In this document: piece by piece, positions 4,288-46,555 of the stretch
Layout of the letters: the number at the start of each line of letters is the position of its first letter
Position numbering within the stretch: position 1 is the first letter of the stretch
Origin: an uncultured Bacteroidales bacterium
GTDB taxonomy: Bacteria > Bacteroidota > Bacteroidia > Bacteroidales > CAIWKO01
Assembly (NCBI GenBank): GCA_964469155.1
Contig: CAYXXU010000009.1
Location: forward strand, 2,494 to 66,493
Direction: 5' to 3'
DNA: 64,000 bases
The notes under the pieces: generated by a model
Seen by the model: the letters and a program-made list of their open reading frames with translations, nothing else
What the model was told of the DNA's origin: nothing
The model's database searches: none
Program-made: the position numbers and the translations under genes

Positions 4288-5106
4288 ATGAAGGAAAGAA
4301 AAATAATTGATTCGTATAATAAAACACCATTTTTTTCTTACTTAAAACAAATTTGGAAATTCCGATATTTTTCTTTTTCTATCGGTTTTGGCGAACTAAA
4401 AAACAAACATGCCAAAACGTATACCGGTATTTTTATGAGTTTTATTCAAACTCTAATTACCTTATGTATTTACTGGTTTGTTTTTGGAATCATTATTAAA
4501 GTAAAAACCGGCAGCATACCCTATCCTTTGTTTGTACTCAGTGGTTTGATATTATGGCAGTATTTTTCCAATACCGTTAATACGATAACCTGGGCATTAA
4601 TCAGTTCTGAGAATTTAATTTCGAAACTTTATTTTCCCAGAATAAATATCATTTTTTCAAAAATGATACCAGGAACCATAGATTTTTTAATCGGTAGTTG
4701 TATATTTATTATCCTGTTTATTTTATATTCTCAACCATTGTCGCTTTCATTGCTTTTGGTTCCATTTGTTCTGATGATCCTAATAATTAACACCCTATCC
4801 ATAGGGCTTTGGACAAGCATTATTTCATTATATTACAATGATTTGAGCCATATACTGGTTCAATTGATAACTTTCTTTATTTTTATCACTCCCGTATTTT
4901 ATCCCAGTACCATTATTCCAGAACAATATAAGATACTTTTATATATAAACCCCATTGCAGGAACCATAGAATTGTTCAGATCACTTTTTTTTAATTACTC
5001 TTTTGAACAGGGATATATCACAGGTTTTTTCATTTCAGGCCTCTTATTTATTTCTGCCCTGTATTTTCATAAAAAAATTGATAAAAAAATTACTGACTTG
5101 CTTTAA
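4288..5106 (+). CDS. wzm: ABC-2 type polysaccharide export permease
   Basis: I prefer the ATG at 4288 to the track TTG at 4270. 272 aa with about six hydrophobic segments, matching the ABC-2 permease pattern of O-antigen/teichoic-acid exporters. The stop is 2 nt before the partner ATPase gene. Confidence 0.8.
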   Translation: MKERKIIDSYNKTPFFSYLKQIWKFRYFSFSIGFGELKNKHAKTYTGIFMSFIQTLITLCIYWFVFGIIIKVKTGSIPYPLFVLSGLILWQYFSNTVNTITWALISSENLISKLYFPRINIIFSKMIPGTIDFLIGSCIFIILFILYSQPLSLSLLLVPFVLMILIINTLSIGLWTSIISLYYNDLSHILVQLITFFIFITPVFYPSTIIPEQYKILLYINPIAGTIELFRSLFFNYSFEQGYITGFFISGLLFISALYFHKKIDKKITDLL

Positions 5107-5108
5107 TA

Positions 5109-6329
5109 ATGAAAGATATCGTAATACGTATTTCGGATTTAAATAAAGATTATTTTATAAACGACCTTAGACAAACTACAAGGCATCCAAATCCTTTTCA
5201 GAGCAAAAAAGAATCGCACGTATTTCATGCTTTAAAAGATATCAATCTGGAAATAGAAAAGGGAGAAGTTATAGGAATTATCGGGCCAAATGGAGCCGGT
5301 AAATCTACTTTATTAAAACTGATTAGCGAGGTTACTATCCCAACATCCGGGAATATTGAAATTCAAGGAAGTGTTGCTTCCATATTGGAAATAGGGATAG
5401 GATTTCAACCGGATCTGACCGGCTTTGAAAATATTTTTTTATCTGGAAGCTTGTATGGATTAACAAAGAATCAAATTAAAAAAAAGACATGTGAAATAAT
5501 TGACATGTTTGGCTTTCCTGATTTCATACATACAGCCGTTAAATATTACTCGTCTGGGATGTACATGCGATTAGCATTCTCAATAATAACTCATATTGAT
5601 GCAGATATTTATTTATTTGATGAAGTACTTAATGTTGGTGATTTAAATTTTAAAAATAAAGGGGTTTCAAAAATAAAAGAATTGAAGAATAAGGGGAAAA
5701 CAGTTCTAATTATAACTCATGCAGCACAATCACTAATTAAATTATTTGACAGGGTATTAATACTTGATAGCGGAGAAATTAAATTCTATGGCAATCCGGA
5801 CCTTGCAATAAAAATTGATTATGGATTGTTAACAAACAATAGTAAATTAGTTTCAAAGCAAATCAATCAGATAAATCAAAATGAACTCCTTCAAAAACAA
5901 AACCTCTTCAACATTGATTTTCAATCAAAATTATGGTTGAATTTTTTAAAAATATATAATTCTAAAACAAATGATTTTCTATGTACTGATTATGAAATCA
6001 TTATAGAAACCATTTTTCATGTTAATTGTAAAATAAATTTCAGAATGGGAGTTATCATTAAAGATTATAATGATAATGTTATTGCTAATTGTTTTTCGGA
6101 TGAGATTGACACAATTGAGAATAAGGGGGAGTACAATATTAAAGCAATATTCCCTCCCAATACTTTCAGGTCAAATTTTTTTATGATTGATATTGTAATT
6201 GTCTCCATGGATTCAATAATAATGTCATATACAAATGCTTTAAAATTTCGTTTGAGTTCTTCTGACAATCAAAGTTCGTTTGAAATTTTTGGATATATTA
6301 ACCCAACAGTCTGTTTTGAAATAAATTAA
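5109..6329 (+). CDS. wzt: polysaccharide ABC exporter ATP-binding protein with extra C-terminal domain
   Basis: Walker A GPNGAGKST, signature-like YSSGMYMRLAF, Walker B IYLFDEVL. About 160 aa extend beyond the nucleotide-binding domain. Confidence 0.85.
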   Translation: MKDIVIRISDLNKDYFINDLRQTTRHPNPFQSKKESHVFHALKDINLEIEKGEVIGIIGPNGAGKSTLLKLISEVTIPTSGNIEIQGSVASILEIGIGFQPDLTGFENIFLSGSLYGLTKNQIKKKTCEIIDMFGFPDFIHTAVKYYSSGMYMRLAFSIITHIDADIYLFDEVLNVGDLNFKNKGVSKIKELKNKGKTVLIITHAAQSLIKLFDRVLILDSGEIKFYGNPDLAIKIDYGLLTNNSKLVSKQINQINQNELLQKQNLFNIDFQSKLWLNFLKIYNSKTNDFLCTDYEIIIETIFHVNCKINFRMGVIIKDYNDNVIANCFSDEIDTIENKGEYNIKAIFPPNTFRSNFFMIDIVIVSMDSIIMSYTNALKFRLSSSDNQSSFEIFGYINPTVCFEIN

Positions 6330-6337
6330 ACTAATAA

Positions 6338-7861
6338 ATGAGTCCCAAGAAAAAAATAGTATTGTTTTATCCGATTGCAACGAATTTCAAACAAGGTCCA
6401 CCCTATTCTTTGCTTTTTCTGGAACGTATGGTTAGAGATGTTGAAGTTGAGGTTGCGATTTTTGATGAAAAACATGATAAGGGTCTTTTTGAATTTATTA
6501 AGATTAATCAGGAGGACATAATTCTTTTGGGAATTAGTGTTATGCTAAGTAACCAAATAATCAGTGCACGAATTGTTGCCGAATTTACCAAAACACACAC
6601 AAATATTCCTGTATTATATGGAGGATGGTTCCCGACAACATTTCCGGAAATTGTTTTATCTGAAGAATTTATTGATTTTATAATAGTAAAGCAGGGAGAA
6701 ATACCTTTCCGGGAATTAATATTAAAATTGCAAAGTGATAATAATGATTATGAAACTATTAAAGGATTGGGATTTAAAAAAGAGGGATCATTAATTTTAA
6801 ATGAAGAGAATAAATGGGCAAATATTTTTGAATTCCCAAGAGTTGATTTTAACAAAATAGATATCACTAAATATTTAGAAAATGGCAATCTCATACAGTA
6901 TATAGCTTCGCAAGGATGTAATTGCCAGTGTAATTTTTGTACTTTTTCCATTATTAAAGATATCCGTCATTTAACGAACAAACCAGAGAATATAATTGAA
7001 GACATTGTTTCCCTTAAAAATAAAATCCCAGGATTAACTCATATAAGCTTTATTGATGACAATTTCTTTTCAAACAGGCACTTCGTTATGCAACTATGCA
7101 ACTTATTCATTGAGCATAAAATTAATATTACCTGGAATGGCAGCGCTCACATAAAACAATTCTTAACATTTTACAATGAAGATGATATAAAATTCATTAA
7201 AAAAAGTGGTTGTATTATGATCTGGTGTGGAGCTGAATCAGCTGATGATTCTGTCCTTAAGAAAATTAATAAAAATTATAAGAAAAATGACACAATAAAC
7301 ATATTACGTATATTTAAAAGAAATCAAATTAGTGCTTCTTTTAATTTCATGGTTGCATTTCCGATAAATCCACAGATTGACTTTAAAAGAACTTTAAAGT
7401 TTATTATGAAAATATTACTATTAAACAGAAATTTAGAGATTGCTGTCAATTTTTACATGCCATTTACTAAAAACGAATATTATTATGAAGCCAGAAAATT
7501 GGGCTTCTCACTTCCTAATTCATATAAGGAATTTGAGAATGTTATAATGAATGGTTCTGAGATGAACTGGGTAACACCTGAAATGAAAAGACAAATAGGG
7601 TATCTGGGTGAATTTTATTTGCCAATATTGAAACTCAAATATCCACTAAATACGCAAGACGTATTAAAGCAAAAGTGGAACTTATTATTTGCAATATTTT
7701 ATCCTCTTATTTATTTACGTTTTGCCACACGCTTTTACAGATTAAATATTGACGCATATTTAGGACTGAAATATTTAAATTATTTCAGAAAAAAGAAAGG
7801 AATTGAAGTATCAAATCTTAATAATTTTATGACGGGCTTTGATAGGTATGTTGATGAATAA
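6338..7861 (+). CDS. B12-binding domain radical SAM protein (class B)
   Basis: 507 aa. N-terminal Rossmann-like cobalamin-binding-type region (KKIVLFYP...LLGISVM...VLYGGWFPT) followed by CNCQCNFC (CX3CX2C). Confidence 0.85.
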   Translation: MSPKKKIVLFYPIATNFKQGPPYSLLFLERMVRDVEVEVAIFDEKHDKGLFEFIKINQEDIILLGISVMLSNQIISARIVAEFTKTHTNIPVLYGGWFPTTFPEIVLSEEFIDFIIVKQGEIPFRELILKLQSDNNDYETIKGLGFKKEGSLILNEENKWANIFEFPRVDFNKIDITKYLENGNLIQYIASQGCNCQCNFCTFSIIKDIRHLTNKPENIIEDIVSLKNKIPGLTHISFIDDNFFSNRHFVMQLCNLFIEHKINITWNGSAHIKQFLTFYNEDDIKFIKKSGCIMIWCGAESADDSVLKKINKNYKKNDTINILRIFKRNQISASFNFMVAFPINPQIDFKRTLKFIMKILLLNRNLEIAVNFYMPFTKNEYYYEARKLGFSLPNSYKEFENVIMNGSEMNWVTPEMKRQIGYLGEFYLPILKLKYPLNTQDVLKQKWNLLFAIFYPLIYLRFATRFYRLNIDAYLGLKYLNYFRKKKGIEVSNLNNFMTGFDRYVDE

Positions 7862-7880
7862 AAACTAATTTAAGAATAAA

Positions 7881-9635
7881 ATGAAATCTTTTCTTGGAGT
7901 ATATTATAAACGGGAGTTAATAAGCAGGCAAGCCACTCAAATCGTAATTGATCATTTTTTAAATGGTAAAAATAAACAAAAGATTACAGAACATAAATAT
8001 GACCATTTATATTTAGCGCAACATAATTATAGTTCATCTCCAGAGTCCGAACTAGTAATTGGAAAATCTCTGTATGGATTTAACGGTATTATGTATCCTC
8101 CATTTCCACCTGCTTCTAATGGGATAGATTTAAGTGAGCAGATTTTACATTATTTTGAAGCTGGTTATAATAAAACCGGATACGACTCATTCAAACAATT
8201 AAAGGGAAAATACAATGCCTATATTTACAATACTGAAAGGCATGAACTAATTCTGGTTAATGACCCATTGGGAATGAATCCTTTATTTTATTATGAAGAT
8301 GAAGAAGTTTTTATTTTTTGTACCGAATATGAAGCTCTTTCAGAATTTGCACAAGCGAAACAAGAACTGGATATTGATGCCATTTTTGAGTATTTTATTT
8401 TTGGAGCACCACAAAATAACAATACATTTTTCCAGAAGATTAAATTATTGCCGCCCGGAAGTTTATTTACTTTTTGCGGCGAAAAAAAACTGGTTACACC
8501 CATTTACGAACGTATTAATATTCAACCAAATCAATCGGATATTGAAGAAATTGCAGATCGGTATTTTATAACATTTAAAGCAGAATTAAAATTATTACTG
8601 AAATGGTATCCCGATCTACCGGTTACGCTTACAGGCGGTACCGATACACGGATTATTTTAGGAGCAATGGATGAGGACCAAAGAAGAAAGCGAAAGTTCT
8701 TTACGTTTACAAGCAGAGTGGTTGAAAACTTTGAAAATCAGGATGTTTTAATTTCAAACATGCTTGCAAAAGAATTCGGACTACAACATAGTATCCTGGA
8801 AAAAGAGTTTTATGCCATAACTACTTTAGATGATGACTATTTTAATAATGTTCGTAACAATTCGGATTTTTTTGTTTCAGGGTTTCTTGGCTCAGAAACA
8901 CTGAGATTTTCTCCTTCTTATCCAAATAATATTTCTGAAATTTCAAGGAGTATTATATCTTCTACATATAATAAATATGATGATGCGCATGATTTTCTTT
9001 TTCCAATGAAAAAGGGTTTTACAAATTCAAAAAAAATATCCTTTGCAGAAAAGAGTTTGAGGGAATTCTTTAATAAAACCTATAGGAAAAATGTGAAAAT
9101 TACACCTAGCAATCTTTTTAAGTCTATAGAACATGCATCCGGACCTTATCCGGAAATTATTTATACTGATAATTATTTGATTCGTTGTTTCTTTTCCCGT
9201 CATTGCGGAGGTGCCAAGAGTAATGTAATTATGCCAGTTCACAATAGTCAGCATTTTGTTTCACCCTTTGCTATTAAAGAATTGCTTCAAATCATCTGGA
9301 GCATAAATCCCCAATATTTATACAGTAACAAAGATGGCATCTCGAATCGTATATTAAAGGATCACTTGCCTGAATTCTGTAAAGTAGAAAGCAATTCACA
9401 TCTGACAGATTATGATGGGACAATTTTAAAAAAATTCACAAGCGGACGACATACTGTCGATTATAACGCCATAAAATATCCTTCCTTCAACGATATCTGC
9501 AAAGACAATTTTGATTATCTATATAGCATATTTGATCTGAAAAAAGTAAAACGGCATTTTTTCGACAAAAATAATCCTTACATGTTTGTATGGGCGGACC
9601 TGTTCATATGGATAAATTATTTACATACCATATAA
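7881..9635 (+). CDS. asparagine synthetase B family protein lacking the N-terminal Cys nucleophile
   Basis: 584 aa. LILVNDPLGMNPLFYY parallels LLIARDRFGIKPLYY of the bona fide AsnB at 30351. LTGGTDTRIILGAM resembles the SGGxDS PP-loop. The protein begins MKS rather than MCG. Confidence 0.6.
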   Translation: MKSFLGVYYKRELISRQATQIVIDHFLNGKNKQKITEHKYDHLYLAQHNYSSSPESELVIGKSLYGFNGIMYPPFPPASNGIDLSEQILHYFEAGYNKTGYDSFKQLKGKYNAYIYNTERHELILVNDPLGMNPLFYYEDEEVFIFCTEYEALSEFAQAKQELDIDAIFEYFIFGAPQNNNTFFQKIKLLPPGSLFTFCGEKKLVTPIYERINIQPNQSDIEEIADRYFITFKAELKLLLKWYPDLPVTLTGGTDTRIILGAMDEDQRRKRKFFTFTSRVVENFENQDVLISNMLAKEFGLQHSILEKEFYAITTLDDDYFNNVRNNSDFFVSGFLGSETLRFSPSYPNNISEISRSIISSTYNKYDDAHDFLFPMKKGFTNSKKISFAEKSLREFFNKTYRKNVKITPSNLFKSIEHASGPYPEIIYTDNYLIRCFFSRHCGGAKSNVIMPVHNSQHFVSPFAIKELLQIIWSINPQYLYSNKDGISNRILKDHLPEFCKVESNSHLTDYDGTILKKFTSGRHTVDYNAIKYPSFNDICKDNFDYLYSIFDLKKVKRHFFDKNNPYMFVWADLFIWINYLHTI

Positions 9636-9672
9636 TCGAATCGGTTGCCAAATTGAATCTAATAATAACCAC

Positions 9673-11043
9673 ATGAAAAGAAAACTATTATTGATATTCC
9701 CGGTAGATAAATCCTGCATTAGATTTCAGGCACAAGCCCCCCCCTTGTCTTTGGGAATTATAGCCGCTTTAACACCCACAAACTGGGATATTGAAATTAT
9801 TGACGAAAATTGGGAAGATTTTGTTTATAAAGAGGCTGACCTGGTTGGAATTACTTCCTGGACATTTTATATTAACCGAGCATATAAAATTGCCGGCCAA
9901 TATAAAAAAGCAGGAATACCGGTTGTTATGGGAGGGATGCATGTTTCTGCAGTCCCCCATGAAGCAATAAATTATTGCAATTCTGTAGTTGTTGGAATTG
10001 CAGAGGAAATATGGCCCAAAGTGATCCATGATTTTGAAAATGGAAACTTAAAGCAATTTTATCATGGCCAACCGACACGGATTTTTATCAAACCAAGGCG
10101 CGATTTATTCGACAATAGATATATGTGGGGTGTGTTACAGACATCAAGAGGATGTCCAATGAGTTGCGAGTTTTGTTCTATAACACAATTTCATGGCAAT
10201 AGATATATTAAGAGACCCATTGAAGAAGTAATAGATGACATTAACGAAATTCAACAAAAATTCTTATTTATTGTTGACGAAAATATTTTGGGATTTACAA
10301 AAAGAGATGAAGAAAAGACTTTAGATTTATTTATAAAAATGTCACAAAATACTGATAAAAAATATTGGTATGGATTTTCCTCAATAAATATTGCCTACGA
10401 CAATGAGTTGCTAAAAAAAGCTAGTGACAGTGGCTGCGGTATGTTGTTTATTGGAATTGAGTCTGAAGATGAAGATGCTTTAAAATCAATGAACAAAAAA
10501 GTCAATCAAAAAATAAGTTTATCAGAATATGATAATCTTATAAAAAAGTTCCATAAAAATGGAATTGGTGTATTTGCGGGAATGATTTATTGCGCAGAAA
10601 CAGACCGGGTTTCCTCTATAAATAAAAGAGCTAAATTTATCCATAACAGTAAATTCGATGCAATTCATTCGAGTATTTTAACACCATTTCCAGGTACAAA
10701 AATGTTCGAGAGGATGAAAGATACTGAACGATTAATTAAAAATAATTACCCGGAAGACTGGAAATATTATAACTGGAAGTCAATTGTTGTAAAACCTGAT
10801 TTTGAAGTGGATTTTGAGAGTTATACAAAAGATGTGCAAAAAGGAATATTAAGTGTTTACAAGCCGTATAGGATTATTCTTAGGGCGATTAAAACATACA
10901 TATGGACTAAAAGCCTGACAATAGCAATACATGGTTTTTCATCAAATATTAATTATAGAGACTATTTTTTAAATAAAACTAATTCCAGATTGAAAAGAAT
11001 ACACAATTTCCTTAGTACTAAGATATTTAAAAATTTCAGATAA
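9673..11043 (+). CDS. B12-binding domain radical SAM protein (class B)
   Basis: 456 aa. N-terminal LLLIFP...DLVGITS...VVMGGMH region, then TSRGCPMSCEFCS (CX3CX2C). Close paralog of 15149..16510. Confidence 0.85.
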   Translation: MKRKLLLIFPVDKSCIRFQAQAPPLSLGIIAALTPTNWDIEIIDENWEDFVYKEADLVGITSWTFYINRAYKIAGQYKKAGIPVVMGGMHVSAVPHEAINYCNSVVVGIAEEIWPKVIHDFENGNLKQFYHGQPTRIFIKPRRDLFDNRYMWGVLQTSRGCPMSCEFCSITQFHGNRYIKRPIEEVIDDINEIQQKFLFIVDENILGFTKRDEEKTLDLFIKMSQNTDKKYWYGFSSINIAYDNELLKKASDSGCGMLFIGIESEDEDALKSMNKKVNQKISLSEYDNLIKKFHKNGIGVFAGMIYCAETDRVSSINKRAKFIHNSKFDAIHSSILTPFPGTKMFERMKDTERLIKNNYPEDWKYYNWKSIVVKPDFEVDFESYTKDVQKGILSVYKPYRIILRAIKTYIWTKSLTIAIHGFSSNINYRDYFLNKTNSRLKRIHNFLSTKIFKNFR

Positions 11044-14747: not shown

Positions 14748-14856
14748 AAAATAACCATTCAAAAATAGTATTAAGAGTCGATTTTAAATAAACTGGCTAA
14801 AATTTTATTTCCGTTTTTTTATTTCTACTATCATTTTATCATTGTCAACTTAATGA

Positions 14857-18436: not shown

Positions 18437-18440
18437 TAAA

Positions 18441-19340
18441 TTATTTTTTTAAAAGGAAAACCAATGGGCTTAAATTTGCTTCTGCAAAATGTCCACAATT
18501 TTGACAATCTAAATTTTTACAACTCAAGCGTTCTTCTAATTGGGAATTAAAGTGTTTTACAGCTTGTTTCCAATAGCATGGTTTGTTTTTATGATCTTCT
18601 TTTTGAAACCATTGTATTGCACTATTGCTCATAAGAAAGTGAGCAGGGTACTTTCTTTTCAAACGATACATCTCAGAAATGATTTTATTTCGCAGATCAG
18701 AATGAACAAAGAAGGGGTCCTTTTCAGGATTTACCGGAGAAGGAGTATAGATATCACAGGATACGCCAAGCATATTATTTTGAATAGCCAATTCAACCAC
18801 TGATTCCATCTGATTCCAGTTTTGTGGTGTAACAGTCATACTAATTACCACCCTCCTGTCATTTTTATAGTTTAATAGCACTTTTTCATATGTGCCGGAA
18901 CCTCTGATATTATCATGCGTCTCCCTATTACCATCAATGGATACAAATATTTTTTGATTATAAAATTCACCTATTTTAATGGTGCCATTTGAACAGATAT
19001 CTATAAATTCGAAATGTTTAGAGGCTTCTGATATAATATCCTGTCTCAAGGCCGGTTCACCTCCTATTAACAAAACCCTTCTTATGCCCTGAGCTTTTAG
19101 TTTCAAAAATTCAGATTTCCAACGTTCAATCGGAAGATCCGAAAAGTTTAACTGATTTTTAAAATTAAAATGATAACAATGTTCACAATTTAAATTACAT
19201 TTATCTGTTATGTCGAATTCGGCAATATAAATTGTGCCAAAAATCAATCTTTTTAGTTCATAAAAAAATATCTTTCCGAATCGAATTAGCTTTTGCGACA
19301 TACTCCCCGGCCATTGTCTTGAAAAATAAAAAAATTCCAT
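18441..19340 (-). CDS. radical SAM protein with C-terminal Cys cluster
   Basis: 299 aa. ITDKCNLNCEHCY (CX3CX2C), IGGEPAL. C-terminal cysteines PCYWKQ...SCKNLDCQNCGHF. Starts 17 nt downstream of the UbiA gene stop on the same strand. Confidence 0.85.
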   Translation of the reverse strand: MEFFYFSRQWPGSMSQKLIRFGKIFFYELKRLIFGTIYIAEFDITDKCNLNCEHCYHFNFKNQLNFSDLPIERWKSEFLKLKAQGIRRVLLIGGEPALRQDIISEASKHFEFIDICSNGTIKIGEFYNQKIFVSIDGNRETHDNIRGSGTYEKVLLNYKNDRRVVISMTVTPQNWNQMESVVELAIQNNMLGVSCDIYTPSPVNPEKDPFFVHSDLRNKIISEMYRLKRKYPAHFLMSNSAIQWFQKEDHKNKPCYWKQAVKHFNSQLEERLSCKNLDCQNCGHFAEANLSPLVFLLKK

Positions 19341-19357
19341 TTTCTGTATTTTGGTAT

Positions 19358-22810: not shown

Positions 22811-22995
22811 ATTATTATACTCCAAATGGAATAATGTATTAATTAATCTCCCAAAATGGAAGGATAAATACAAAGGTATAAAAAACAATTGTCACTCTAC
22901 TTTTTCCCCTTGTAACCGATTTCTTATCAGAAATAAAATTGGACGAAAACACATCGTCACCTTCAATAAAAAACATTTGTTCTCGGCAGAATCAT

Positions 22996-36329: not shown

Positions 36330-36330
36330 T

Positions 36331-39160: not shown

Positions 39161-40640
39161 ACTGTTATCCTCCTTTAAAAAATGGTTACTGGTTGTTATT
39201 CGCTTCTATAGAAAAAGTGCTGTCACACCTACAAATATTATAGAGGAATCTTTACAAAGACAATACAGTGAATATAATGTACAACGCTTTTATGGCCCTC
39301 AAAAATATTTTTGTTATGCTCCTTTTGGGAGTATGTTCATTAGCTATAGTGGCAGGGTGTCACCATGTTATGCCTGTAAAAATGAGGAATCGCTTCAAAG
39401 CAGGTCTTTAGATGAAATCTGGAATGGCCCTGTTTTTTCTGAACTGAGAAATCAATTTAAAACCGGAATCGTTCCGGAAGCCTGTTCTTTCTGCAAGGAC
39501 CATCTGCTTCAAAAAAACTATGGAAGTATTTTAGCCAACAAATATGACCACTATCTTTTATCGGCCGTTGGCAATCCGGTAATTGCCGAACTGGAATTAT
39601 CAAACCTATGCAACCTGGAATGCATTATGTGTTCTGGAAACCTTTCATCGGGCATACGGAAAAACAGGGAACAGTTGCCCCCTGTTATAAACCAACTCCC
39701 CGCAGATTTTATTCATCAGTTCGAAAAGTTTATTCCCAAACTAAAAACCATTGAATTGACAGGGGGCGACCCCTTCCTTATAGATGAATACTACCAGATA
39801 TTAAATGAAATTGAGCGATCAAATCCCAAAATTGAGGTGTTAATAACTACCAATGCAAATACCATAACCCCGAAAACGGAGGCATTATTAAAAAAAAGAC
39901 TCCTTTTAAGCTTTAATATATCCATCGATTCCCTGGATGAAATCATTTATGCCGAAATCCGCCGCAAAGGATCACTCAAAACCGTCATGAGAAACATTGA
40001 GTATTTTTCGGAATACACAAAAAAGAATAACACATCACTTGGGTTTTTAGTATGTCCGCTGAAACAGAACTGGAAAGAACTTCCATCGTTTGTTGATTTT
40101 GCCAATAAATATCATGCGACACTTAGTTATCATGTAGTTTTCAAACCTTCAGAGCATGCTTTATGGTCATATTCTTCAGCAACATTACATGAAATTTATC
40201 TCTACTTAGCGTCCTTTTCATTTATAGGTAATGATTTTAACAGCAATATCAATGCCCGCAGTTATAATGCACTGGTAATTTTAATAGAATCATGGTATAA
40301 GAAGGCGATTACACGGGAAGCAAAATATCAAAATCTGATATTTGATTTGCAAAAACAGGTTGAGGGAGCTAAAAGATCTTTGCGAACCAACTTAAACGAT
40401 GATTACCTGTTCCATAAAATCGAAAAGACTATAGGCTTATTAAATATTTCTGAATTCCCCGAATTGGTTTTTCTTGAATTATATAAGAAAACAAAAACGG
40501 AAATAGAAGAGGGATTAAGGCAATTTTCGGATGAAGAATTAATTCGAAAACTGCAACTTTATCATCAGGAGCAATATTCTGCTTACTTTTATGACTTACA
40601 ACTGAGTGATAACGATAAATATTTAAACAATTCCCTGTAA
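39153..40640 (+). CDS. radical SAM protein with N-terminal twitch/SPASM-like Cys motif (family copy 8 of 9)
   Basis: I prefer the ATG at 39153 (MSELLSSF) to the track start at 39138. CYAPFGSMFISYSGRVSPC, ACSFC, SNLCNLECIMC, TGGDPFL, TTNAN, ISIDS, HALWSY. Confidence 0.9.
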   Translation: MSELLSSFKKWLLVVIRFYRKSAVTPTNIIEESLQRQYSEYNVQRFYGPQKYFCYAPFGSMFISYSGRVSPCYACKNEESLQSRSLDEIWNGPVFSELRNQFKTGIVPEACSFCKDHLLQKNYGSILANKYDHYLLSAVGNPVIAELELSNLCNLECIMCSGNLSSGIRKNREQLPPVINQLPADFIHQFEKFIPKLKTIELTGGDPFLIDEYYQILNEIERSNPKIEVLITTNANTITPKTEALLKKRLLLSFNISIDSLDEIIYAEIRRKGSLKTVMRNIEYFSEYTKKNNTSLGFLVCPLKQNWKELPSFVDFANKYHATLSYHVVFKPSEHALWSYSSATLHEIYLYLASFSFIGNDFNSNINARSYNALVILIESWYKKAITREAKYQNLIFDLQKQVEGAKRSLRTNLNDDYLFHKIEKTIGLLNISEFPELVFLELYKKTKTEIEEGLRQFSDEELIRKLQLYHQEQYSAYFYDLQLSDNDKYLNNSL

Positions 40641-40644: not shown

Positions 40645-41847
40645 ATGAAAAAGGAAAATGGATTCGTATATGTTGTTTGCGGAGGCGATAAACACATCAA
40701 TACTCTTAATACGTCAATAAAATATCTAAAGAGATTTTCGAAAAATAAAATAATCGTTATTACTGATTCTTCCCGAAACCAAATCAAAATAGCACATGAT
40801 TTAATTATTGACATTAAAACCGATTCGAAATACACCCACCATCAGGCGGCTATTTTTCTGAAAACATCGGTTCACAAATATCTTGACATGGATAATGCCT
40901 TGTATTGTTATCTGGATTCTGATGTGATCGCTTTATCAGAAGAAGTGGATGAAGTTTTTAACCAGACTTTTGACACCATAGGATTTTGTCCGGACAATAT
41001 TACTTTTGATTATTTTAGTCCTTATGCCATGAATTGCAGCTGCATTGATGAAAGTATCCAAAACCGGGAAAAATTGATGCGCACCTCTGAAGAATATGAT
41101 AAATTGCATGGGGAATGGTCCTCGTTTATAAAAGAAAATGGTGGAACTGTTTTAAATGACAAACTTGAAAAAATAAAAAAACCGTTGCCTGAAAACTGGG
41201 GGAAACTTGTCTGGTTCCAAATTCAGAAAACATTGCCATTTTGTAAAACCATCCGTCTGTTTGATCATCTTATGGATAAAAAAAGTAAACAATGGAAAAA
41301 CAAAGAGGGAAAGGTGGTTCTTTATCCTGTTGAATCGTATGAAAGTTTTATCCATAGCCACACCGGGTTTGTTTATCACAAAAATGATAACTTTTGGAGC
41401 AAGGCAGACGACCCATATGATGTTACCATTCCGCGTTGTGGGCATTTGCATAAAGCCATCAGCGAGACATTTGGGGTAAATATTTCTCCTGTATACTGGC
41501 AACATCCTAATGGGGGGGTATTTTTATTTGATGCAGGGTCGTCTGATTTTCTGAACTTTTGGCATGAAAATACCATAGAGATATTCAGTAACTCAACATG
41601 GAAAATCAGGGATCAGGGAACATTAGCTTATGCTTTCTGGAATTTTTCGCTTCAAAAAAGATCATATCTCCCCAAAGAATTTAATTTTATTGCGGACTAT
41701 TATTCGAAAAACTCAGTTCTTGATTATGATGGAACTTTTAATATTAATGGGAGAAAAATCAAACCCCATTTTATTCACATATTTCATCACTGGGACGACA
41801 AAGATTGGCCTGTATGGAACTCTATTCTTTCATTTTTACATAAATAG
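40645..41847 (+). CDS. hypothetical protein, possible GT-A fold nucleotide-sugar transferase
   Basis: 400 aa. N-terminal FVYVVCGGDKHINTLNTSIKYLKRFS...IIVITD and YCYLDSDVIAL (DxD-like) resemble GT8-like/GT-A enzymes. The rest is unrecognised. It sits inside the rSAM array with 4-nt and 1-nt gaps. Confidence 0.35.
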   Translation: MKKENGFVYVVCGGDKHINTLNTSIKYLKRFSKNKIIVITDSSRNQIKIAHDLIIDIKTDSKYTHHQAAIFLKTSVHKYLDMDNALYCYLDSDVIALSEEVDEVFNQTFDTIGFCPDNITFDYFSPYAMNCSCIDESIQNREKLMRTSEEYDKLHGEWSSFIKENGGTVLNDKLEKIKKPLPENWGKLVWFQIQKTLPFCKTIRLFDHLMDKKSKQWKNKEGKVVLYPVESYESFIHSHTGFVYHKNDNFWSKADDPYDVTIPRCGHLHKAISETFGVNISPVYWQHPNGGVFLFDAGSSDFLNFWHENTIEIFSNSTWKIRDQGTLAYAFWNFSLQKRSYLPKEFNFIADYYSKNSVLDYDGTFNINGRKIKPHFIHIFHHWDDKDWPVWNSILSFLHK

Positions 41848-41848: not shown

Positions 41849-43372
41849 ATGAACAATATCTCGGGAAAAATACTTTACTCATCGGCAAAGGCCGTGAATC
41901 ATTTCAGAAGTGTCTTTTATAAAAAATACAGCCCAATTGGTGAAAATAAATCCCTTGAAAAAGAACGCATCCATTACTACAATAAACATCGGCCTTTTGG
42001 TCCATTACCCAAATTATGTTATGCTCCCTGGACCAATCTGTTTTTTAATACCGATGGCAAAGCATCTGTATGCTGCAAGAACACCAAAGTGCTTATGGGA
42101 GAATATCCAGCTTCTTCGATTCACGATATCTGGTTTAATTCGGGAGTGAATGATCTCAGAAAAAAAATTCAATGTAATGACGTTTCTTTTGGTTGTTATA
42201 AATGCAGGGATTCTATTACTCAGAAGAATTTTAGCACCTTAACTTCAACACAATTCGACAAATATGGATTATTTCCTCTGTCGAAATACCCTCGTATTAT
42301 TGAATTTGAACTAAGCAACCGTTGTAATTTGGAATGCATTATGTGTTCTGAAAGAGTTTCCTCGGCTATTGCATTGGCCAAGAACCAAAATCCTAATATC
42401 GAATCAAGATATGATCAGTCATTTATTCACCAACTTAAAGAGTTCATACCACATCTAGATAAAGCAAAGTTTTCAGGTGGTGAACCATTTTTAATACCTA
42501 TTTATTATAAAATTTGGGAAGAAATCATAAAACTGAATCCTTCAACAAAAATATTTGTGCAGACAAATGGTACGATCTTAAATGAAGAAATCAAAAAAAT
42601 GGTGCGTAAGCTTCATTTTCGTATAAATATATCACTTGATTCTGTCGATAAGAACAATTATGAATTTATTCGTAAAAATGCTAGTTTCGAATTAACCATG
42701 AGTAACATTGCCTGGTATGGAAAAAACACAACCCAACTTGGTATCCTTACAACTCCATTCCGGCAAAACTGGCATGACGTTCCTGATATTATCCGTTTTT
42801 GCAATAAAAACCAATATCATTTCAATATTAGTCCTGTTTATCAACCTAAAGAGTTGGCACTATGGAGTCTCGATATCAGATCACAAGACGAGATTATAAA
42901 TTTTTATCAATCAGAATCATTATCCTCAGGAAACTGGCTTGAAAAGAAGAATAAACAAGTTTTTCAGGAGTTAATCAATTCAATCAAAGATTGGAGAACC
43001 CGAAAAGTTCAGAATGATAACTTTGATCAGGATTTCACAAACAATATTGTTGAACAGGAAAAAGCAGAAGGTTTGCTTGTCAAGAAAAAATTCTCATTAC
43101 AAGCTATTAATCTTCTCATGAATGAATGTATTGAAAACTTAATAAAGACAGGTCTCTCATCTGAAGAAATAAATACATTAACATGTATGAGTGAAAATGT
43201 AAGAAAAGAACAATATCCGTCATTACCATCATTCTCCATCTACTTAAAGCTAAAAGAAATCAAGCCCACTGATATTTTGAATGTAATACGGACTACAGCT
43301 TCTGAGGGTATTTATAAGAAAATAGGATTGTTATATGAGTCAATAATTGAAGATTATGAAATTGACTATTAA
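41849..43372 (+). CDS. radical SAM protein with N-terminal twitch/SPASM-like Cys motif (family copy 9 of 9)
   Basis: I prefer the ATG at 41849 (MNNISGK); the track start at 41630 overlaps the upstream gene by 218 nt. CYAPWTNLFFNTDGKASVCC, GCYKC, SNRCNLECIMC, SGGEPFL, QTNGT, ISLDS, LALWSL. Confidence 0.9.
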   Translation: MNNISGKILYSSAKAVNHFRSVFYKKYSPIGENKSLEKERIHYYNKHRPFGPLPKLCYAPWTNLFFNTDGKASVCCKNTKVLMGEYPASSIHDIWFNSGVNDLRKKIQCNDVSFGCYKCRDSITQKNFSTLTSTQFDKYGLFPLSKYPRIIEFELSNRCNLECIMCSERVSSAIALAKNQNPNIESRYDQSFIHQLKEFIPHLDKAKFSGGEPFLIPIYYKIWEEIIKLNPSTKIFVQTNGTILNEEIKKMVRKLHFRINISLDSVDKNNYEFIRKNASFELTMSNIAWYGKNTTQLGILTTPFRQNWHDVPDIIRFCNKNQYHFNISPVYQPKELALWSLDIRSQDEIINFYQSESLSSGNWLEKKNKQVFQELINSIKDWRTRKVQNDNFDQDFTNNIVEQEKAEGLLVKKKFSLQAINLLMNECIENLIKTGLSSEEINTLTCMSENVRKEQYPSLPSFSIYLKLKEIKPTDILNVIRTTASEGIYKKIGLLYESIIEDYEIDY

Positions 43373-43420
43373 TTACTTGTGGTTATTATTTCCCCCAGAA
43401 CCAATTCTAAAATTATAAAG

Positions 43421-43930
43421 ATGAATATTATACTTATTGATGAAAAAGACAACATTACCGGATACAATGAAAAGTCATTGGTACATAGAGAGGGACTATT
43501 GCATAGGGCATTTTCCATTTTTATTCTTAATTCAAAAAAGGAGTTGTTGATTCAGCAAAGAAAACATGATAAATACCATTCCGGGGGATTATGGTCCAAT
43601 ACATGCTGCGGACATTTTACTTCAGGAATAGATATGGTAAAACAGGCCGAAAAACGTTTGCATGAAGAAATGGGAATTCATTGTCAGTTGAATTGGATTT
43701 TTAATTACAGATATTCCGTATTGCTTAATAATGGACTGAAAGAGAATGAACTTGTTTATGCTTATTCAGGATTTTGTGATGAAAATCCACTCCCTGATCG
43801 GGAGGAAGTTAATGATTGGAGGTGGGTGAATTTAATTAGTTTGAAGGAAGATCAGAATCAGAATCCCCAACAATATACATTTTGGTTTACCTACTCTTTT
43901 AATGATCTTTACAGTAATATTTATAAATAA
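43421..43930 (+). CDS. idi: isopentenyl-diphosphate delta-isomerase, type 1 (Nudix fold)
   Basis: I prefer the ATG at 43421 (MNIILIDEKD). LHRAFSIFILNSKKELLIQQRKHDKYHSGGLWSNTCCGH is the hallmark IDI-1 block, including the catalytic Cys context. Confidence 0.85.
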   Translation: MNIILIDEKDNITGYNEKSLVHREGLLHRAFSIFILNSKKELLIQQRKHDKYHSGGLWSNTCCGHFTSGIDMVKQAEKRLHEEMGIHCQLNWIFNYRYSVLLNNGLKENELVYAYSGFCDENPLPDREEVNDWRWVNLISLKEDQNQNPQQYTFWFTYSFNDLYSNIYK

Positions 43931-43952
43931 TAGGGGATATTATCCGGCACCA

Positions 43953-45176
43953 ATGATCTTTAAAAAAAAGAATACACATTTCATAGTTTTCAGTTCTCTA
44001 CTGATAATTTGTATTATAGCCCATGTGTTGTTTTTTATTATTTCCGGATCGTATTTGATCACCTCAGGTTTGTTTGTTATTATACTTATTTCTCTGTTAA
44101 TATATTATCTTATTGGTTTTTTATCATCCGTTTTTGGGTTGAAAAGGAAACTAAATGAAACGCGTCTTATTGTTTTTACGACAGCCATTTGTTTATGTAT
44201 TATTGAATTATTATTTGTGCTTACCGGTTATAAAAGCACTAGTGTGGAAAAAAGAAATCTTTTTTACTATTCTTCACAATATGATCCTGTTAAAACAAAA
44301 CGTTTTCATTTATGGAAAGAAGACCATCCCTTAAAGACAGCAGAATATTGCTATTACCGGACTTTAAATTCAGACAGCTTGTCAGATAAAGAACATGTTG
44401 TTGAAAAAAATATAAATGAATATAGAATTATAGGGTTAGGCGATTCATTTACTGAGGGAGATGGGACTGATGCTGATTCTACCTGGCTTAAATTTCTGGA
44501 AAGAAATGTTGCAATAAAATATCCTTTAAAAAAGCAGCTCACTTATTTTAATGCAGGTGTTTGTGGAAGTGACCCTTGTTTTGAATATATCCTACTAAGA
44601 GAAAGATTGTTGAAATATAATCCGGATTTGGTGATATTGGCCATTAATATTTCAGATATTAATGATGTTATTATACGCGGCGGAATGGAACGTTTTAAAC
44701 CGGATGGTAGTGTTCATTATAAGAATGCCCCCTGGTGGGAACCCCTTTATGCCATGAGCCATATTTCGCGTTTGTTTTTTTCAGGACTAGGCTATAACGA
44801 ACTTCTTTTTAAAGAAAATGAAAGTAATTTTAATAAGGCCAAACAGAAAATCACAGAGATAATTCTTATTTTTAAAGAATTTTCCGAAAGAAATCACTTT
44901 AAGCTAATTGTAATATTTCATCCTTATCAGGGGGAAATTAACACGAACCATTTGGAATTACATAATGTAATGGAAAAAGTTTCAGAAGAATACAAAATTG
45001 ATGTTTTGAACATGCCGGAATATTTCAAAGAAAAAGAAAAAATAAATTCTGCTAACAGTAGTGAATATTTCTGGAAGTATGATGGCCACCACAATGCAAA
45101 AGGTTATGCTGCCTTTGCCCGTGGCGTGGAGTGGAAATTAAAACAAATGGGAGTTATTGACTCCTTATCGAAATGA
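43953..45176 (+). CDS. membrane-anchored SGNH/GDSL hydrolase family protein
   Basis: I prefer the ATG at 43953. Three N-terminal TM segments, block I IIGLGDSFTEGDG, block V YDGHHNAKGY. Confidence 0.7.
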   Translation: MIFKKKNTHFIVFSSLLIICIIAHVLFFIISGSYLITSGLFVIILISLLIYYLIGFLSSVFGLKRKLNETRLIVFTTAICLCIIELLFVLTGYKSTSVEKRNLFYYSSQYDPVKTKRFHLWKEDHPLKTAEYCYYRTLNSDSLSDKEHVVEKNINEYRIIGLGDSFTEGDGTDADSTWLKFLERNVAIKYPLKKQLTYFNAGVCGSDPCFEYILLRERLLKYNPDLVILAINISDINDVIIRGGMERFKPDGSVHYKNAPWWEPLYAMSHISRLFFSGLGYNELLFKENESNFNKAKQKITEIILIFKEFSERNHFKLIVIFHPYQGEINTNHLELHNVMEKVSEEYKIDVLNMPEYFKEKEKINSANSSEYFWKYDGHHNAKGYAAFARGVEWKLKQMGVIDSLSK

Positions 45177-45256
45177 TCAAAAACATCTGGTTCAATATTC
45201 TTTTTTATCATAAATGTAAAATTTTTACTAATTTTAATGGCAAAAAAAACAGGACT

Positions 45257-45264
45257 TATGTTTG
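45257..45264 (+). promoter_or_regulatory. candidate -7 box TATGTTTG
   Basis: TAnnTTTG match 62 nt upstream of the ATG at 45326. Confidence 0.3.
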
Positions 45265-45325
45265 ATAATAAATCAAAATATCCTAACCCCCGTCTTCTTC
45301 TATAATAACACCTGATAATCTTCAG

Positions 45326-46555
45326 ATGAGTCCACGGCAAATAAAATATTTGGATTATTGGTTTGGTGTTCCTTTTGTATTTATGCTCACTCTGTGTAGG
45401 TACTTTTTTTTAATGTTCACATCAAAGAATCATTTTCCTTGTAAACCTGAAAAAATAATTTTCATTAAACTCATAGAGCAGGGTGCCACCGTATTGGCAT
45501 ATTCCAGTATACAAAAAGCAGTAGATCTGGTAGGGGCAAAAAATGTTTATTTTCTGGTTTTCGAGGAAAACAAGCCGATTTTGGAGATTATTGACATCAT
45601 CCCTGAAGAAAATATCCTCACCTTAAGGAATAAGGGACTCTTTCAGTTTTCACTGGATATCATAAAATCGTTGTTGAGCATTAACAGGATCAGGATCGAC
45701 ACGGCAATTGACATGGAATTTTTCTCCAGGTTCTCAGCCATTCTTACTTATTTAAGCGGTGCAAAAAACAGGGTGGGCAATCATCGTTATTTAAGCGAAC
45801 TGCCCTATAGGGGGGATTTAATGACCCATAAAATACAGTACAATCCTTTTCTTCATGTTTCTGTAGCCTACCAATTAATGGTTGAGTCACTAAACTCAAT
45901 ACGTAAAGATGTTCCTTTGCCCAAAATTAACATTGAAAATGTAATAACTACTGCAAAGAAATATTGGCCACCGGATCAGGAAATAGAAAATATTAAGGAT
46001 GTCATAAAGTCCGAATTAAAAGGTGAAATCATATTTCCTGTAATTATTTTAAATCCCAACACCAGCGATATGATTCCAATAAGAAAATGGGCCAAAGAGA
46101 ATTTTATTAGTCTGGCCCAAAAACTTTTGAATTATTTTGAAAATAAAACCACTATTGTCATTACAGGTAGCAATCGTGAAGGTGCAGAAGGAGAAAACAT
46201 TTGTCAGAAAATCGGGTCCAACTGCGTAGTAAATCTGGCCGGGAAAACCACTCTTAAGGAATTAATGGCTCTGTATTCAGTGAGTGATGCTTTGATAACC
46301 AATGATAGTGGCCCCGGTCATTTTGCCTCTATGACTGATATAACCGACCTGGTTTTGTTTGGTCCGGAAACCCCCAAATTGTATGGGCCTATCGGGAAAA
46401 ATGTTGTTTGCATTGAATCGCATTTAGGTTGCAGCCCCTGTGTGAATCCGTTTAATCACAGGTTTTCACCCTGCAATAATAATCTTTGTATGCAATCTAT
46501 TACAGTTGAAATAGTTCTTAATAAATTAATCGAAGCATTTGCTTGTAAAACATAA
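45326..46555 (+). CDS. glycosyltransferase family 9 (heptosyltransferase-like)
   Basis: 409 aa. NLAGKTTLKELMALYSVSDALITNDSGPGHFAS matches the GKTSL.EL.AL...A.L.I.NDSGPMH block of GT9. Confidence 0.8.
   Translation: MSPRQIKYLDYWFGVPFVFMLTLCRYFFLMFTSKNHFPCKPEKIIFIKLIEQGATVLAYSSIQKAVDLVGAKNVYFLVFEENKPILEIIDIIPEENILTLRNKGLFQFSLDIIKSLLSINRIRIDTAIDMEFFSRFSAILTYLSGAKNRVGNHRYLSELPYRGDLMTHKIQYNPFLHVSVAYQLMVESLNSIRKDVPLPKINIENVITTAKKYWPPDQEIENIKDVIKSELKGEIIFPVIILNPNTSDMIPIRKWAKENFISLAQKLLNYFENKTTIVITGSNREGAEGENICQKIGSNCVVNLAGKTTLKELMALYSVSDALITNDSGPGHFASMTDITDLVLFGPETPKLYGPIGKNVVCIESHLGCSPCVNPFNHRFSPCNNNLCMQSITVEIVLNKLIEAFACKT

Follow-up and report, generated by a model that had tools for sequence, protein, structure and literature searches.

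We describe here a putative surface-glycan locus of an uncultured Bacteroidales bacterium in which radical S-adenosylmethionine (rSAM) genes fill more than half of the core. The locus lies in a window of 64,000 nucleotides (GenBank assembly GCA_964469155.1, contig CAYXXU010000009.1, positions 2,494 to 66,493 of the forward strand), which is the whole stretch of DNA analyzed and to which all coordinates refer. All 48 substantial open reading frames (ORFs) of the window were scanned with Pfam, and most were scanned with NCBIfam. Between 6338 and 43372 there are 15 rSAM genes occupying 20,673 of 37,035 bp (55.8%, with the last gene started at 41849), in agreement with a preliminary description of this DNA, which had counted 15 genes, about 20.6 kb, and about 55% of the core. 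This number per 37 kb is far above chance; related genome loci of ±10 kb carry 1 to 9. The rSAM genes stand among genes for an ATP-binding cassette (ABC) transporter, glycosyltransferases (GTs), and enzymes of sugar, acyl, amide, and prenyl metabolism, and the locus is best explained as a variable cell-surface glycan island of the O-antigen, capsule, or glycolipid type.

The 15 rSAM proteins comprise nine with an N-terminal twitch domain (NF033640-like; N-twitch), four that are B12 binding, one small protein, and one with a C-terminal SPASM domain. N-twitch 1 (11126..12487, −; SPASM at residues 27-90, then Radical_SAM; NF033640, 137 bits) and N-twitch 2 (21362..22888, −; NF033640, 173 bits) stand apart. 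Six tandem genes on the plus strand (32135..40640), all assigned with Pfam and NF033640, encode N-twitch 3 (32135-33547), 4 (33541-34863), 5 (34860-36329), 6 (36331-37716), 7 (37709-39160), and 8 (39138-40640). N-twitch 9 (41849..43372, +; NF033640, 166 bits) most likely starts at ATG 41849 and not at 41630, because the longer ORF, beginning at 41630, runs over the gene before it and its orthologue in related locus L084 has 507 aa. In eight of the nine paralogues, Pfam places SPASM (residues ~20-125) before Radical_SAM, and the ninth is covered by NF033640. This model ("twitch domain-containing radical SAM protein," N_Twi_rSAM) is the best for all nine by >60 bits and over nearly its full length; one paralogue exceeds its cutoff of 170 (173.0) and the others score 135.5 to 165.6, and by these scores the nine are best described as divergent members. 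Literature searches found no characterized member of NF033640.

The CxxxCxxC motif is kept in 15/15 rSAM proteins, and all nine N-twitch proteins have four invariant N-terminal Cys residues, CNLxCxMC, and the SAM-binding motif GG(E/D)PF. With CxxxCxxC, the N-terminal Cys residues, and GGEPF kept, the rSAM genes look catalytically competent and not like decayed copies. The N-twitch paralogues are old, since they are only 27 to 38% identical among themselves. In a profile search, their twitch domain matched the auxiliary-cluster domain of BtrN (E = 3e-10) and their core matched viperin and MoaA. The closest fold to an AlphaFold model (predicted local distance difference test [pLDDT], 92.0) is BlsE, a radical decarboxylase of a glucuronate nucleoside, followed by SkfB, SuiB, viperins, MoaA, GDGT-MAS (the highest identity among the fold matches, 20%), and anSME; CteB is also among the matches. 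The core is of a generic SPASM/twitch-clade type that leans toward small-molecule sugar or nucleotide substrates without deciding the substrate.

The B12-binding rSAM genes, all on the plus strand and all with PF02310 at the N terminus and PF04055, are a (6338..7861; no NCBIfam equivalog reached), b (9673..11043; 46% identical to c), c (15149..16510), and d (16994..18436; best matches HpnJ/BchE, 177 bits versus cutoffs of 481 to 578). None of the four reached a characterized subfamily (HpnR, HpnJ, BchE, PhpK, GenK/AprD4, etc.), scoring 71 to 177 bits against cutoffs of 360 to 650. Most class B rSAM enzymes methylate, and by analogy these four probably methylate unactivated carbons. The small rSAM protein (18441..19340, −; 299 aa; PF04055) has a CNLNCEHC motif, and its gene lies downstream of a UbiA gene on the same strand. 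The protein with a C-terminal SPASM domain (24778..25890, −) is AhbD/NirJ-like by Pfam and NCBIfam.

Adjacent genes encode a Wzm-type ABC-2 permease (4270..5106, +; PF01061), with best Protein Data Bank (PDB) matches to Aquifex Wzm (6m96/6oih) and TarG, and a Wzt-type ATPase (5109..6329, +; PF00005), with NCBIfam matches to TagH (183 bits) and galactan Wzt/RfbE (163 bits). The ATPase matches Aquifex Wzt in the PDB at E = 3e-54 over residues 38-240 only and has a C-terminal extension of ~160 aa, the PDB and Pfam matches stopping at residues ~38-260. By similarity, the pair is closest to exporters of polyprenyl-diphosphate glycans (Aquifex Wzm-Wzt, TagGH/TarGH, and the mycobacterial galactan exporter) among both solved structures and NCBIfam models, so the earlier reading of an ABC-transporter-dependent locus stands.

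The locus encodes six or seven glycosyltransferases, including a GT8-like/GT32 pair. Five are GT4 at the left end (2982..4145, +; Pfam Glycos_transf_1/Glyco_transf_4), GT2 (29341..30348, +; PF00535), a GT8-like GT-A protein of 400 aa, "unk400" (40645..41847, +), GT9 of the heptosyltransferase family (45326..46555, +; PF01075), and GT32 at the right end (49586..50443, +; PF04488/PF05704). They form a cytoplasmic set, with no Wzx/Wzy, that is predicted to build the chain. The 400-aa protein had no match in Pfam, NCBIfam, or PDB sequences, even with a 25-sequence profile, and was assigned with AlphaFold2 and Foldseek. In a model built on 46 homologues (pLDDT, 92.9), its N-terminal half matches UGGT (GT24), glycogenin and XXYLT1 (GT8), LARGE1, and WbbM, with E values of 7e-6 to 2e-4 for UGGT, glycogenin, LARGE1, and WbbM. 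The matched enzymes are retaining GT-A glycosyltransferases, and WbbM is a bifunctional O-antigen polymerase. D91 and D93 in a YLDSD motif are invariant, and one homologue has a precomputed GT8 Pfam match. The preliminary label of "GT-A-like" thus fits the modeled fold, which matches GT8/GT24 glycosyltransferases. A tandem repeat of 21 bp (49295-49475; 8.6 copies, 72% matches) lies in the gap just upstream of GT32; it can also be read as a 63-bp period repeated 2.3 times and gives spurious repeat-peptide ORFs on both strands.

A further candidate is a polytopic membrane protein of 766 aa (12462..14762, −), for which no Pfam, NCBIfam, or PDB sequence match was found with the single sequence or a profile. 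It was described earlier as GT-C-like. The many transmembrane (TM) segments agree with this, and two of six homologues match PMT_2 at E = 0.008, which supports the GT-C identity itself only weakly. Homologues lie between GT32 and GT4 in three related loci (L142, L145, and L146).

Several genes point to an amino sugar and its acylation. A DegT-family sugar aminotransferase (23076..24185, +; PF01041, 283 bits; PseC-like, 196 bits) is followed by a NeuD/PglD-type sugar N-acyltransferase (24182..24781, +; PglD_N and Hexapep; TIGR03570, 140.5 bits versus a cutoff of 160.8), and a small hexapeptide-repeat acyltransferase (20642..21076, +; PF00132) has an orthologue of 66% identity that adjoins N-twitch 2 in L116. 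Because the window holds the aminotransferase and the N-acyltransferases but no 4,6-dehydratase, a BtrN-like radical oxidation could, speculatively, supply the keto-sugar. A private fatty-acid cassette consists of a short-chain dehydrogenase/reductase (SDR) resembling FabG/FabI (25943..26755, +; adh_short_C2), a FabA/FabZ-like dehydratase (26761..27210, +; PF07977), a beta-ketoacyl synthase (KAS; 27210..28496, +; PF00109/PF02801), and an acyl carrier protein (ACP) of 84 aa (28501..28755, +; NCBIfam ACP models, 30 to 38 bits). The ACP is conserved in six loci and most likely starts at ATG 28501, the gene in L001 being called as 84 aa. The 212-aa protein that follows (28755..29393, +) has no match itself and is a probable phosphopantetheinyl transferase (PPTase), its syntenic counterpart in L004 matching PF01648 (ACPS) weakly. 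An aryl-polyene or "ladderane-type" lipid cluster was considered for the ACP/KAS cassette and set aside, as the matching B12-rSAM model scored 55 to 98 bits against a cutoff of 360.

Two AsnB-type proteins are present. The one at 30351..32138 (+; Asn_synthase, 237 bits, and GATase_7) is a full glutamine amidotransferase/synthetase with an MCGI N terminus and Cys2. The divergent one at 7881..9635 (+; GATase_7; asn_synth, 78 bits, far under the cutoff) starts MKSF and not MCG, lacks the Cys2 glutaminase nucleophile, and matches asparagine-synthase models over the first ~300 residues only; it may be an ATP-dependent amide ligase joining an amine and a carboxylate rather than a glutamine amidotransferase. 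A UbiA-family prenyltransferase (19358..20209, −; PF01040) has both Asp-rich motifs, and its named relatives are generic or archaeal prenyltransferases only (≤34 bits), with a weak match to AfUbiA (4tq3; E = 0.0025). The type 1 isopentenyl-diphosphate isomerase Idi (43379..43930, +), with NTCCGH and ENE motifs, exceeds both NCBIfam cutoffs (NF002995, 137 versus 127 bits; TIGR02150, 107.5 versus 105.8 bits). Next to it is a membrane-anchored SGNH/GDSL hydrolase or acyltransferase (43902..45176, +; PF13472; N-terminal TM segments). A NodU/CmcH/TobZ-type O-carbamoyltransferase (46687..48555, +; Carbam_trans_N/C, 316 and 249 bits), which recurs in bacterial and viral N-twitch loci, is followed by a single-pass membrane protein of 49 aa (48562..48711, +) and an SxtJ-like small membrane protein (48816..49217, +; PF19588). 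The three form a conserved trio, since the 49-aa protein always follows the carbamoyltransferase and is nearly identical in eight related loci.

The family scans of the 48 ORFs thus found, each in its place, all gene classes that the preliminary description had listed, namely Wzm/Wzt, GT2, GT9, DegT, NeuD/PglD, the two AsnB-type genes, UbiA, Idi, SGNH, and the SDR/FabZ/KAS/ACP cassette, with the GT4 and GT32 genes just outside 6338-43372. Its statement that the locus has no WbaP/WecA-type initiating transferase, Wzx/Wzy pair, or chain-length regulator also agrees with the scans, in which 0/48 ORFs matched the WbaP/WecA, Wzx, Wzy, or Wzz families and no PF00953 or PF02397 match to an initiating phosphoglycosyltransferase was found in the window. 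Its limits (4288-46555) have to be revised: the functional locus spans ~2982-50443 (~47 kb), because GT4 (from 2982) and GT32 (to 50443) bracket everything and prolyl-tRNA synthetase (ProRS) follows as in relatives. The locus looks like a variable island, mosaic in build, between two conserved glycosyltransferase genes. Its G+C content is 33.3%, versus 36.5% and 39.1% in the flanks, and a G+C content below that of the surroundings is usual for surface-glycan islands. Rfam and tRNA scans found no RNA gene in the window.

Conservation was followed in 77 genome loci (one representative genome per species) and in metagenome and viral contigs; related loci are given as L numbers and homologous proteins as P numbers. 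The N-twitch 5 protein (34860-36329) has 732 detectable homologues, and the family has 1,827 representatives in a 50%-identity library (E ≤ 1e-30). All 77 genome loci and all named relatives are from metagenome-assembled genomes (MAGs) of Bacteroidota, including Bacteroidales, Chitinophagales, Saprospiraceae, Crocinitomicaceae, and Flavobacteriales; no cultured carrier was found among the 77 loci and the named homologues. When the ORFs of these loci were mapped onto the window proteins, close relatives were found to keep the order KAS, ACP, (PPTase-like), GT2, AsnB, N-twitch 3 through 8, GT8-like, N-twitch 9, and GT32, as one-to-one orthologues of 43 to 61% identity in several Bacteroidales MAGs, among them a 4.86-Mb Bacteroidales chromosome (OY782882). 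N-twitch 3 through 8 have one-to-one orthologues, their order unchanged, in L004/L011, L007, L084, L127, and L128, and the paralogues are therefore conserved individually and distinct in function.

The core that recurs throughout the phylum consists of AsnB, one to four N-twitch genes, GT8-like, and GT32, with frequent additions of SGNH, Wzm/Wzt, carbamoyltransferase, and B12-rSAM genes; genes for sugar-nucleotide SDR epimerases, short GT2 genes, and additional GT8-like genes recur as neighbors too. Conservation is highest for GT32 (47 to 64% identity), which flanks N-twitch genes in most related loci. In a GT32-anchored scan of 55 metagenome loci, each ≥8 kb long, N-twitch genes were present in 28 and an orthologue of the window GT4 (~50% identity) lay directly beside GT32 in 19; the two genes are adjacent in simpler genomes. 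Some of these loci read Idi-SGNH-carbamoyltransferase-SxtJ-GT32-GT4 without rSAM genes, and some have GT32 alone. Outside close relatives, the rSAM block is a variable accessory beside GT32. A short conserved sequence, probably a noncoding element, occurs in five metagenome loci (L124:10438-10575, L130:14111-14248, L142:15591-15791, L145, and L146) downstream of GT32, membrane-protein, and GT4 genes; it shows "ORFs" in several frames and is absent from the window.

Natural gene fusions join some of these families. Of the 120 best-matching homologues of the GT8-like protein, ~11 (including P0271, P0274, and P0279) carry GT8-like and GT32 domains in one protein of 660 to 685 aa, and such a fusion architecture is that of two-activity chain-extending enzymes in ABC-dependent pathways. 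Three UbiA-N-twitch rSAM fusions of 843 to 872 aa, separate at the 50% cluster level (P0055 [L006:10001-12550], P0411, and P0447), have UbiA halves distantly similar to the window UbiA, and UbiA adjoins rSAM genes in L006, L017, and L087. A soluble rSAM domain tethered to membrane-bound UbiA argues that the prenyl-linked UbiA product, which would be a membrane-bound intermediate, is the substrate of at least some N-twitch enzymes. Double N-twitch rSAM fusions of 870 to 981 aa were also seen (P0361, P0366, and P0368).

N-twitch arrays also occur in phages. More than 500 stretches of IMG/VR contigs encode N-twitch-like proteins, which are as distant from the window genes as the window paralogues are from each other. 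Among the viral loci (L168-L247), L207 (4113-19596) has eight N-twitch-like genes and an 852-aa B12-rSAM gene in 21 kb of a 230-kb contig, L244 (2511-20466) has about eleven rSAM genes, and L173, L176, and L212 (5610-18839) have four to eight N-twitch-like genes with a carbamoyltransferase. The arrays often also carry a B12-rSAM protein of ~860 aa, a carbamoyltransferase, and an SDR resembling UDP-sugar epimerases; nine viral loci have, 9 to 641 bp from an N-twitch-like gene, an SDR gene whose product is related to UDP-glucose 4-epimerase and UDP-glucuronate decarboxylase. The L212 contig is genuinely viral, because the gene beside its array has a tail-spike IMC domain and matches virion/baseplate proteins of PA5oct-like jumbo phages. 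The bacterial core is found on one viral contig of 157 kb, L226, whose genes include GT32-like, AsnB-like, three N-twitch, and carbamoyltransferase genes. Cultured phages yielded only single distant copies (26 to 29% identity) in nt-1-like Vibrio phages, with an uninformative neighborhood. As the phage arrays come without an exporter, the rSAM array is a mobile module able to exist without one, and by gene content the phage neighborhoods reinforce the predicted link of N-twitch proteins to sugar-nucleotide and glycan metabolism.

The gene families, gene order, conservation, and natural fusions described above are direct observations. From them we propose, with a probability of about 60%, that the locus makes a lipid-linked glycan or glycolipid, exported by the ABC transporter, and that radical enzymes tailor its sugars and possibly its lipid. 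The glycan would be assembled at the cytoplasmic side, on a polyprenyl-phosphate carrier, by GT4, GT2, GT9, and the GT8-like/GT32 pair, the last probably a two-activity chain-extending unit. An amino sugar made by DegT would be N-acylated by the PglD-type or hexapeptide transferases, the acyl group possibly coming from the private cassette of ACP, KAS, ketoreductase, and dehydratase. Carboxylates would be amidated by the two AsnB-type enzymes and hydroxyls carbamoylated. The 15 rSAM enzymes would modify C-H positions without oxygen, acting on intermediates that are linked to nucleotides or, more likely, to lipids: C-methylation by the four B12 enzymes, and oxidation, epimerization, deoxygenation, or C-C bond formation by the nine position-specific N-twitch paralogues. 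After export of the chain by Wzm/Wzt, membrane-anchored SGNH may acylate or deacylate it in the periplasm, and the GT-C-like protein may glycosylate it there from a UbiA-made polyprenyl-phosphate sugar. This agrees with the preliminary proposal of a lipid-linked, amino-sugar-containing, amidated, and acylated polymer with radical tailoring, which is supported as far as genomics allows, the product being read from gene content.

Several points weigh against this proposal. The carriers found are all MAGs, metagenome contigs, or viral contigs. Idi, UbiA, the CMAS-like methyltransferases of related loci, and the weak Tes, HpnH, HpnJ, and HpnR matches fit chemistry on the lipid part equally well. 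The N-twitch core matches are generic, with viperin, MoaA, SkfB, SuiB, and GDGT-MAS scoring about like BlsE; the window UbiA is not detectably like phosphoribosyl-transferring UbiA enzymes; and the GT-C assignment of the 766-aa protein is plausible but weak. No initiating phosphoglycosyltransferase, ligase, or chain terminator was found in the window. The missing initiating transferase does not exclude an ABC-dependent pathway, because this enzyme is often encoded elsewhere in the genome; many ABC-dependent loci lack it. On phage contigs, N-twitch arrays stand without Wzm/Wzt, and GT32 orthologues also occur without nearby rSAM genes (L086, L133, and L159-161). Since GT32 does so and each module varies on its own, more than one pathway may be encoded in the window.

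We think it rather unlikely that the chemistry is centered on a lipid instead, with rSAM enzymes remodeling a UbiA-attached prenyl chain (Idi leading to dimethylallyl diphosphate) and/or an ACP-made acyl chain by C-methylation, ring formation, or cross-linking, while the glycosyltransferases add a head group and Wzm/Wzt moves the glycolipid out. Grs, Tes, HpnP, and HpnR do such chemistry in other lipids. The UbiA-N-twitch fusions suit this explanation, as do Idi genes that adjoin SGNH and GT32 (58 to 62% identity) in loci without rSAM genes, CMAS-like methyltransferases in 24 genome loci, and PhyH and P450 genes in relatives. The best matches of the B12-rSAM proteins, which include HpnJ, HpnR, BchE, and the "ladderane-type lipid" model, the position of GDGT-MAS as the fold match of highest identity, and the weak Tes and HpnH matches point the same way. 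All of these similarities to lipid enzymes, however, are far under the family cutoffs, and the genes found most constantly beside N-twitch genes encode glycosyltransferases, AsnB, and sugar-nucleotide SDRs rather than lipid enzymes; UbiA is missing from most N-twitch loci, and neither a polyprenyl synthase nor a terpene cyclase was identified in the window. We give a still smaller chance to a patchwork of two or three independent neighboring systems, such as a lipopolysaccharide-core set (GT4, GT9, and GT32), an ABC-exported O-polysaccharide, and an rSAM-rich module. The rSAM-free Idi-SGNH-carbamoyltransferase-SxtJ-GT32-GT4 arrangement of L094 and L099, the lone GT32 of L086, the transporter-free phage arrays, several strand switches, and a G+C content of 30.5% at 4270-22888 versus 34.3% at 23076-46555 would all fit it. 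In several genomes, however, the 26- to 50-kb half keeps its synteny as a single block, L006, L084, and L087 have their transporter, B12-rSAM, and N-twitch genes side by side, and fusions tie GT8-like to GT32 and UbiA to N-twitch; a mosaic build is moreover normal for surface-glycan loci with a single product.

A diffusible pseudo-oligosaccharide or aminoglycoside- or nucleoside-like product, for which the ABC-2 pump would serve export and self-resistance, seems improbable to us, even though the parts list parallels the butirosin, gentamicin, and tobramycin pathways. It combines a BtrN-like twitch domain with a DegT aminotransferase and also includes a B12-rSAM protein with a weak AprD4 match (91 bits), a TobZ-family carbamoyltransferase, an ACP-borne side chain, and GT4, with BlsE as the best N-twitch fold match. 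Among the 48 ORFs, however, there is no 2-deoxy-scyllo-inosose synthase (DHQ-synthase-like), inositol-phosphate synthase, or nucleoside-forming enzyme. The pump scores 183 bits with TagH and 163 bits with Wzt versus 123 bits with DrrA; the GT-C-like protein, GT9, and membrane-anchored SGNH point to the envelope; and the locus occupies a fixed chromosomal site by the conserved GT32 and ProRS genes, with a content that varies as in serotype loci. Least probable is a RiPP cluster (for a peptide made ribosomally and then modified posttranslationally) in which the SPASM/twitch rSAM enzymes mature a peptide. Peptide maturation is what these enzymes are best known for, many NCBIfam peptide-maturase models match weakly, SkfB, SuiB, and CteB are among the N-twitch fold matches, and the AsnB-like protein that lacks the glutaminase Cys has a likeness to lasso cyclases (64 bits versus a cutoff of 525). 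Against this, the intergenic gaps of the window hold no plausible precursor ORF, and clustering of 1,702 small ORFs over ~240 related loci returned only the ACP, the 49-aa carbamoyltransferase partner, and overlapping-frame artifacts as recurrent. The Pfam and NCBIfam scans found no PqqD/RRE domain, peptidase, or bacteriocin-type exporter in the window ORFs; the auxiliary domain is N-terminal with a single four-Cys cluster motif; and the constant neighbors are glycosyltransferases. On the small-ORF listing and clustering we rejected a RiPP, and the earlier remark that no precursor-peptide gene is present holds for the window gaps.

A wider reading, which we hold only tentatively, is that N-twitch arrays may be a widespread and hitherto unrecognized radical toolkit of Bacteroidota and large phages that edits the sugars of lipid- or nucleotide-linked glycans without oxygen, one position per ancient paralogue, by oxidation, epimerization, deoxygenation, or C-branching at specific positions, with C-methylation by B12 enzymes in addition. 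With such a toolkit, surface polysaccharides or glycolipids of a new chemical class would arise, and serotype variation and the interplay of phages and hosts would gain a new layer. To our knowledge, surface-glycan pathways diversify their sugars almost wholly by two-electron chemistry on nucleotide sugars. Radical enzymes in more than half of the core imply changes beyond that chemistry, at unactivated carbons and toward rare or branched sugars made without oxygen. With ~1,800 N-twitch clusters at 50% identity, one solved reaction would annotate thousands of genes. It could also bring to light antigens or glycolipids that are new, made by the abundant uncultured Bacteroidota of digesters, sediments, and waters, and might explain up to a dozen rSAM genes in large phages.

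Other genes flank the locus. An AAA_14/DUF4143 ATPase gene (1691-2908) is directly at the left border of the island. To the right, a 16th rSAM gene outside the locus (53472-54467, −; C-terminal SPASM; tungsten-cofactor oxidoreductase maturase model, 152 bits versus a cutoff of 380) adjoins an AI-2E family transporter gene and a GT28 gene. Overlapping ORFs of 85 and 84 aa (52864-53121, − and 53118-53372, −) resemble, by eye from their translations, a toxin of the YoeB/Txe type and an antitoxin of the Phd/YefM type. Two TonB-dependent receptors in tandem, both with CarboxypepD_reg domains (56692-59091, − and 59391-61811, −), are 67% identical to each other. In the flanks, Pfam found sorting domains of the type IX secretion system (T9SS) as well as CarboxypepD_reg-TonB receptors, and these assign the organism to Bacteroidota.

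Full-text literature searches returned no account of the function of the N-twitch family or of rSAM-rich glycan loci and no published description of this gene combination, as the preliminary description had supposed. Parts of it can be compared with known systems. The N-twitch proteins share with NF033640 an N-terminal four-Cys domain followed by an rSAM core and differ in forming an array of nine ancient paralogues. BtrN is a twitch rSAM dehydrogenase that works with a DegT-family aminotransferase in butirosin/2-deoxystreptamine biosynthesis; the window likewise has a twitch domain matching BtrN and a DegT aminotransferase, but its twitch is N-terminal and that of BtrN is C-terminal, the cores are not specifically related, and there is no cyclitol synthase. 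The lipid rSAM enzymes (the archaeal GDGT ring synthases GrsA/B, Tes/GDGT-MAS, and the hopanoid enzymes HpnH/HpnP/HpnR) are also position-specific paralogue sets, acting on isoprenoids, and the window has UbiA and Idi and weak sequence and fold similarity to them, whereas the scores are far under the cutoffs and the window neighbors are glycan enzymes. Some O-polysaccharide loci, for example in Flavobacterium psychrophilum, carry an ACP/KAS/ketoreductase cassette for the N-acyl chain of an amino sugar, and the window ACP, ketosynthase, reductase, and dehydratase may be analogous, as they adjoin a sugar aminotransferase and N-acyltransferases; we know of no rSAM genes in such loci.

In O-antigen extracytoplasmic pentofuranosylation (Kelly et al. 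2024; PMC11127046), a UbiA-type polyprenyl-phosphoribose synthase, a MATE flippase, and a GT-C glycosyltransferase of family GT136 work together, and auxiliary epimerases of the SDR or DprE1/E2 type act on the undecaprenyl-phosphate-linked sugar. The window resembles this system in having a UbiA-family protein and a GT-C-like protein inside an ABC-dependent locus, and tailoring of a polyprenyl-phosphate sugar before flipping would fit the UbiA-N-twitch fusions. It differs in that no MatE or HAD match was found among the 48 ORFs (flippase and HAD-type phosphoribose phosphatase absent), the UbiA does not specifically resemble DPPRS-type enzymes, the 766-aa protein is only weakly assigned to GT-C, and the epimerases of the known system are not rSAM enzymes. 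Because MATE and HAD are absent and the UbiA is not specifically DPPRS-like, we treat this as analogy, not membership. The closest likeness is to the ABC-dependent O-antigen and capsule pathways (Escherichia coli O9a, Klebsiella O2a with WbbM, and Aquifex aeolicus), which share with the window adjacent Wzm/Wzt genes, several cytoplasmic glycosyltransferases, the lack of Wzx/Wzy, and a variable island of low G+C content; the fold of the GT8-like protein also matches WbbM. The window differs in that no initiating transferase, terminator, or recognizable Wzt carbohydrate-binding domain was found in it and in the 15 rSAM genes that fill more than half of its core. We know of no counterpart of this core in described O-antigen or capsule loci, and literature searches found none. 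Its transporter, its glycosyltransferases, and its island-like behavior place the locus among the ABC-transporter-dependent surface-glycan loci.

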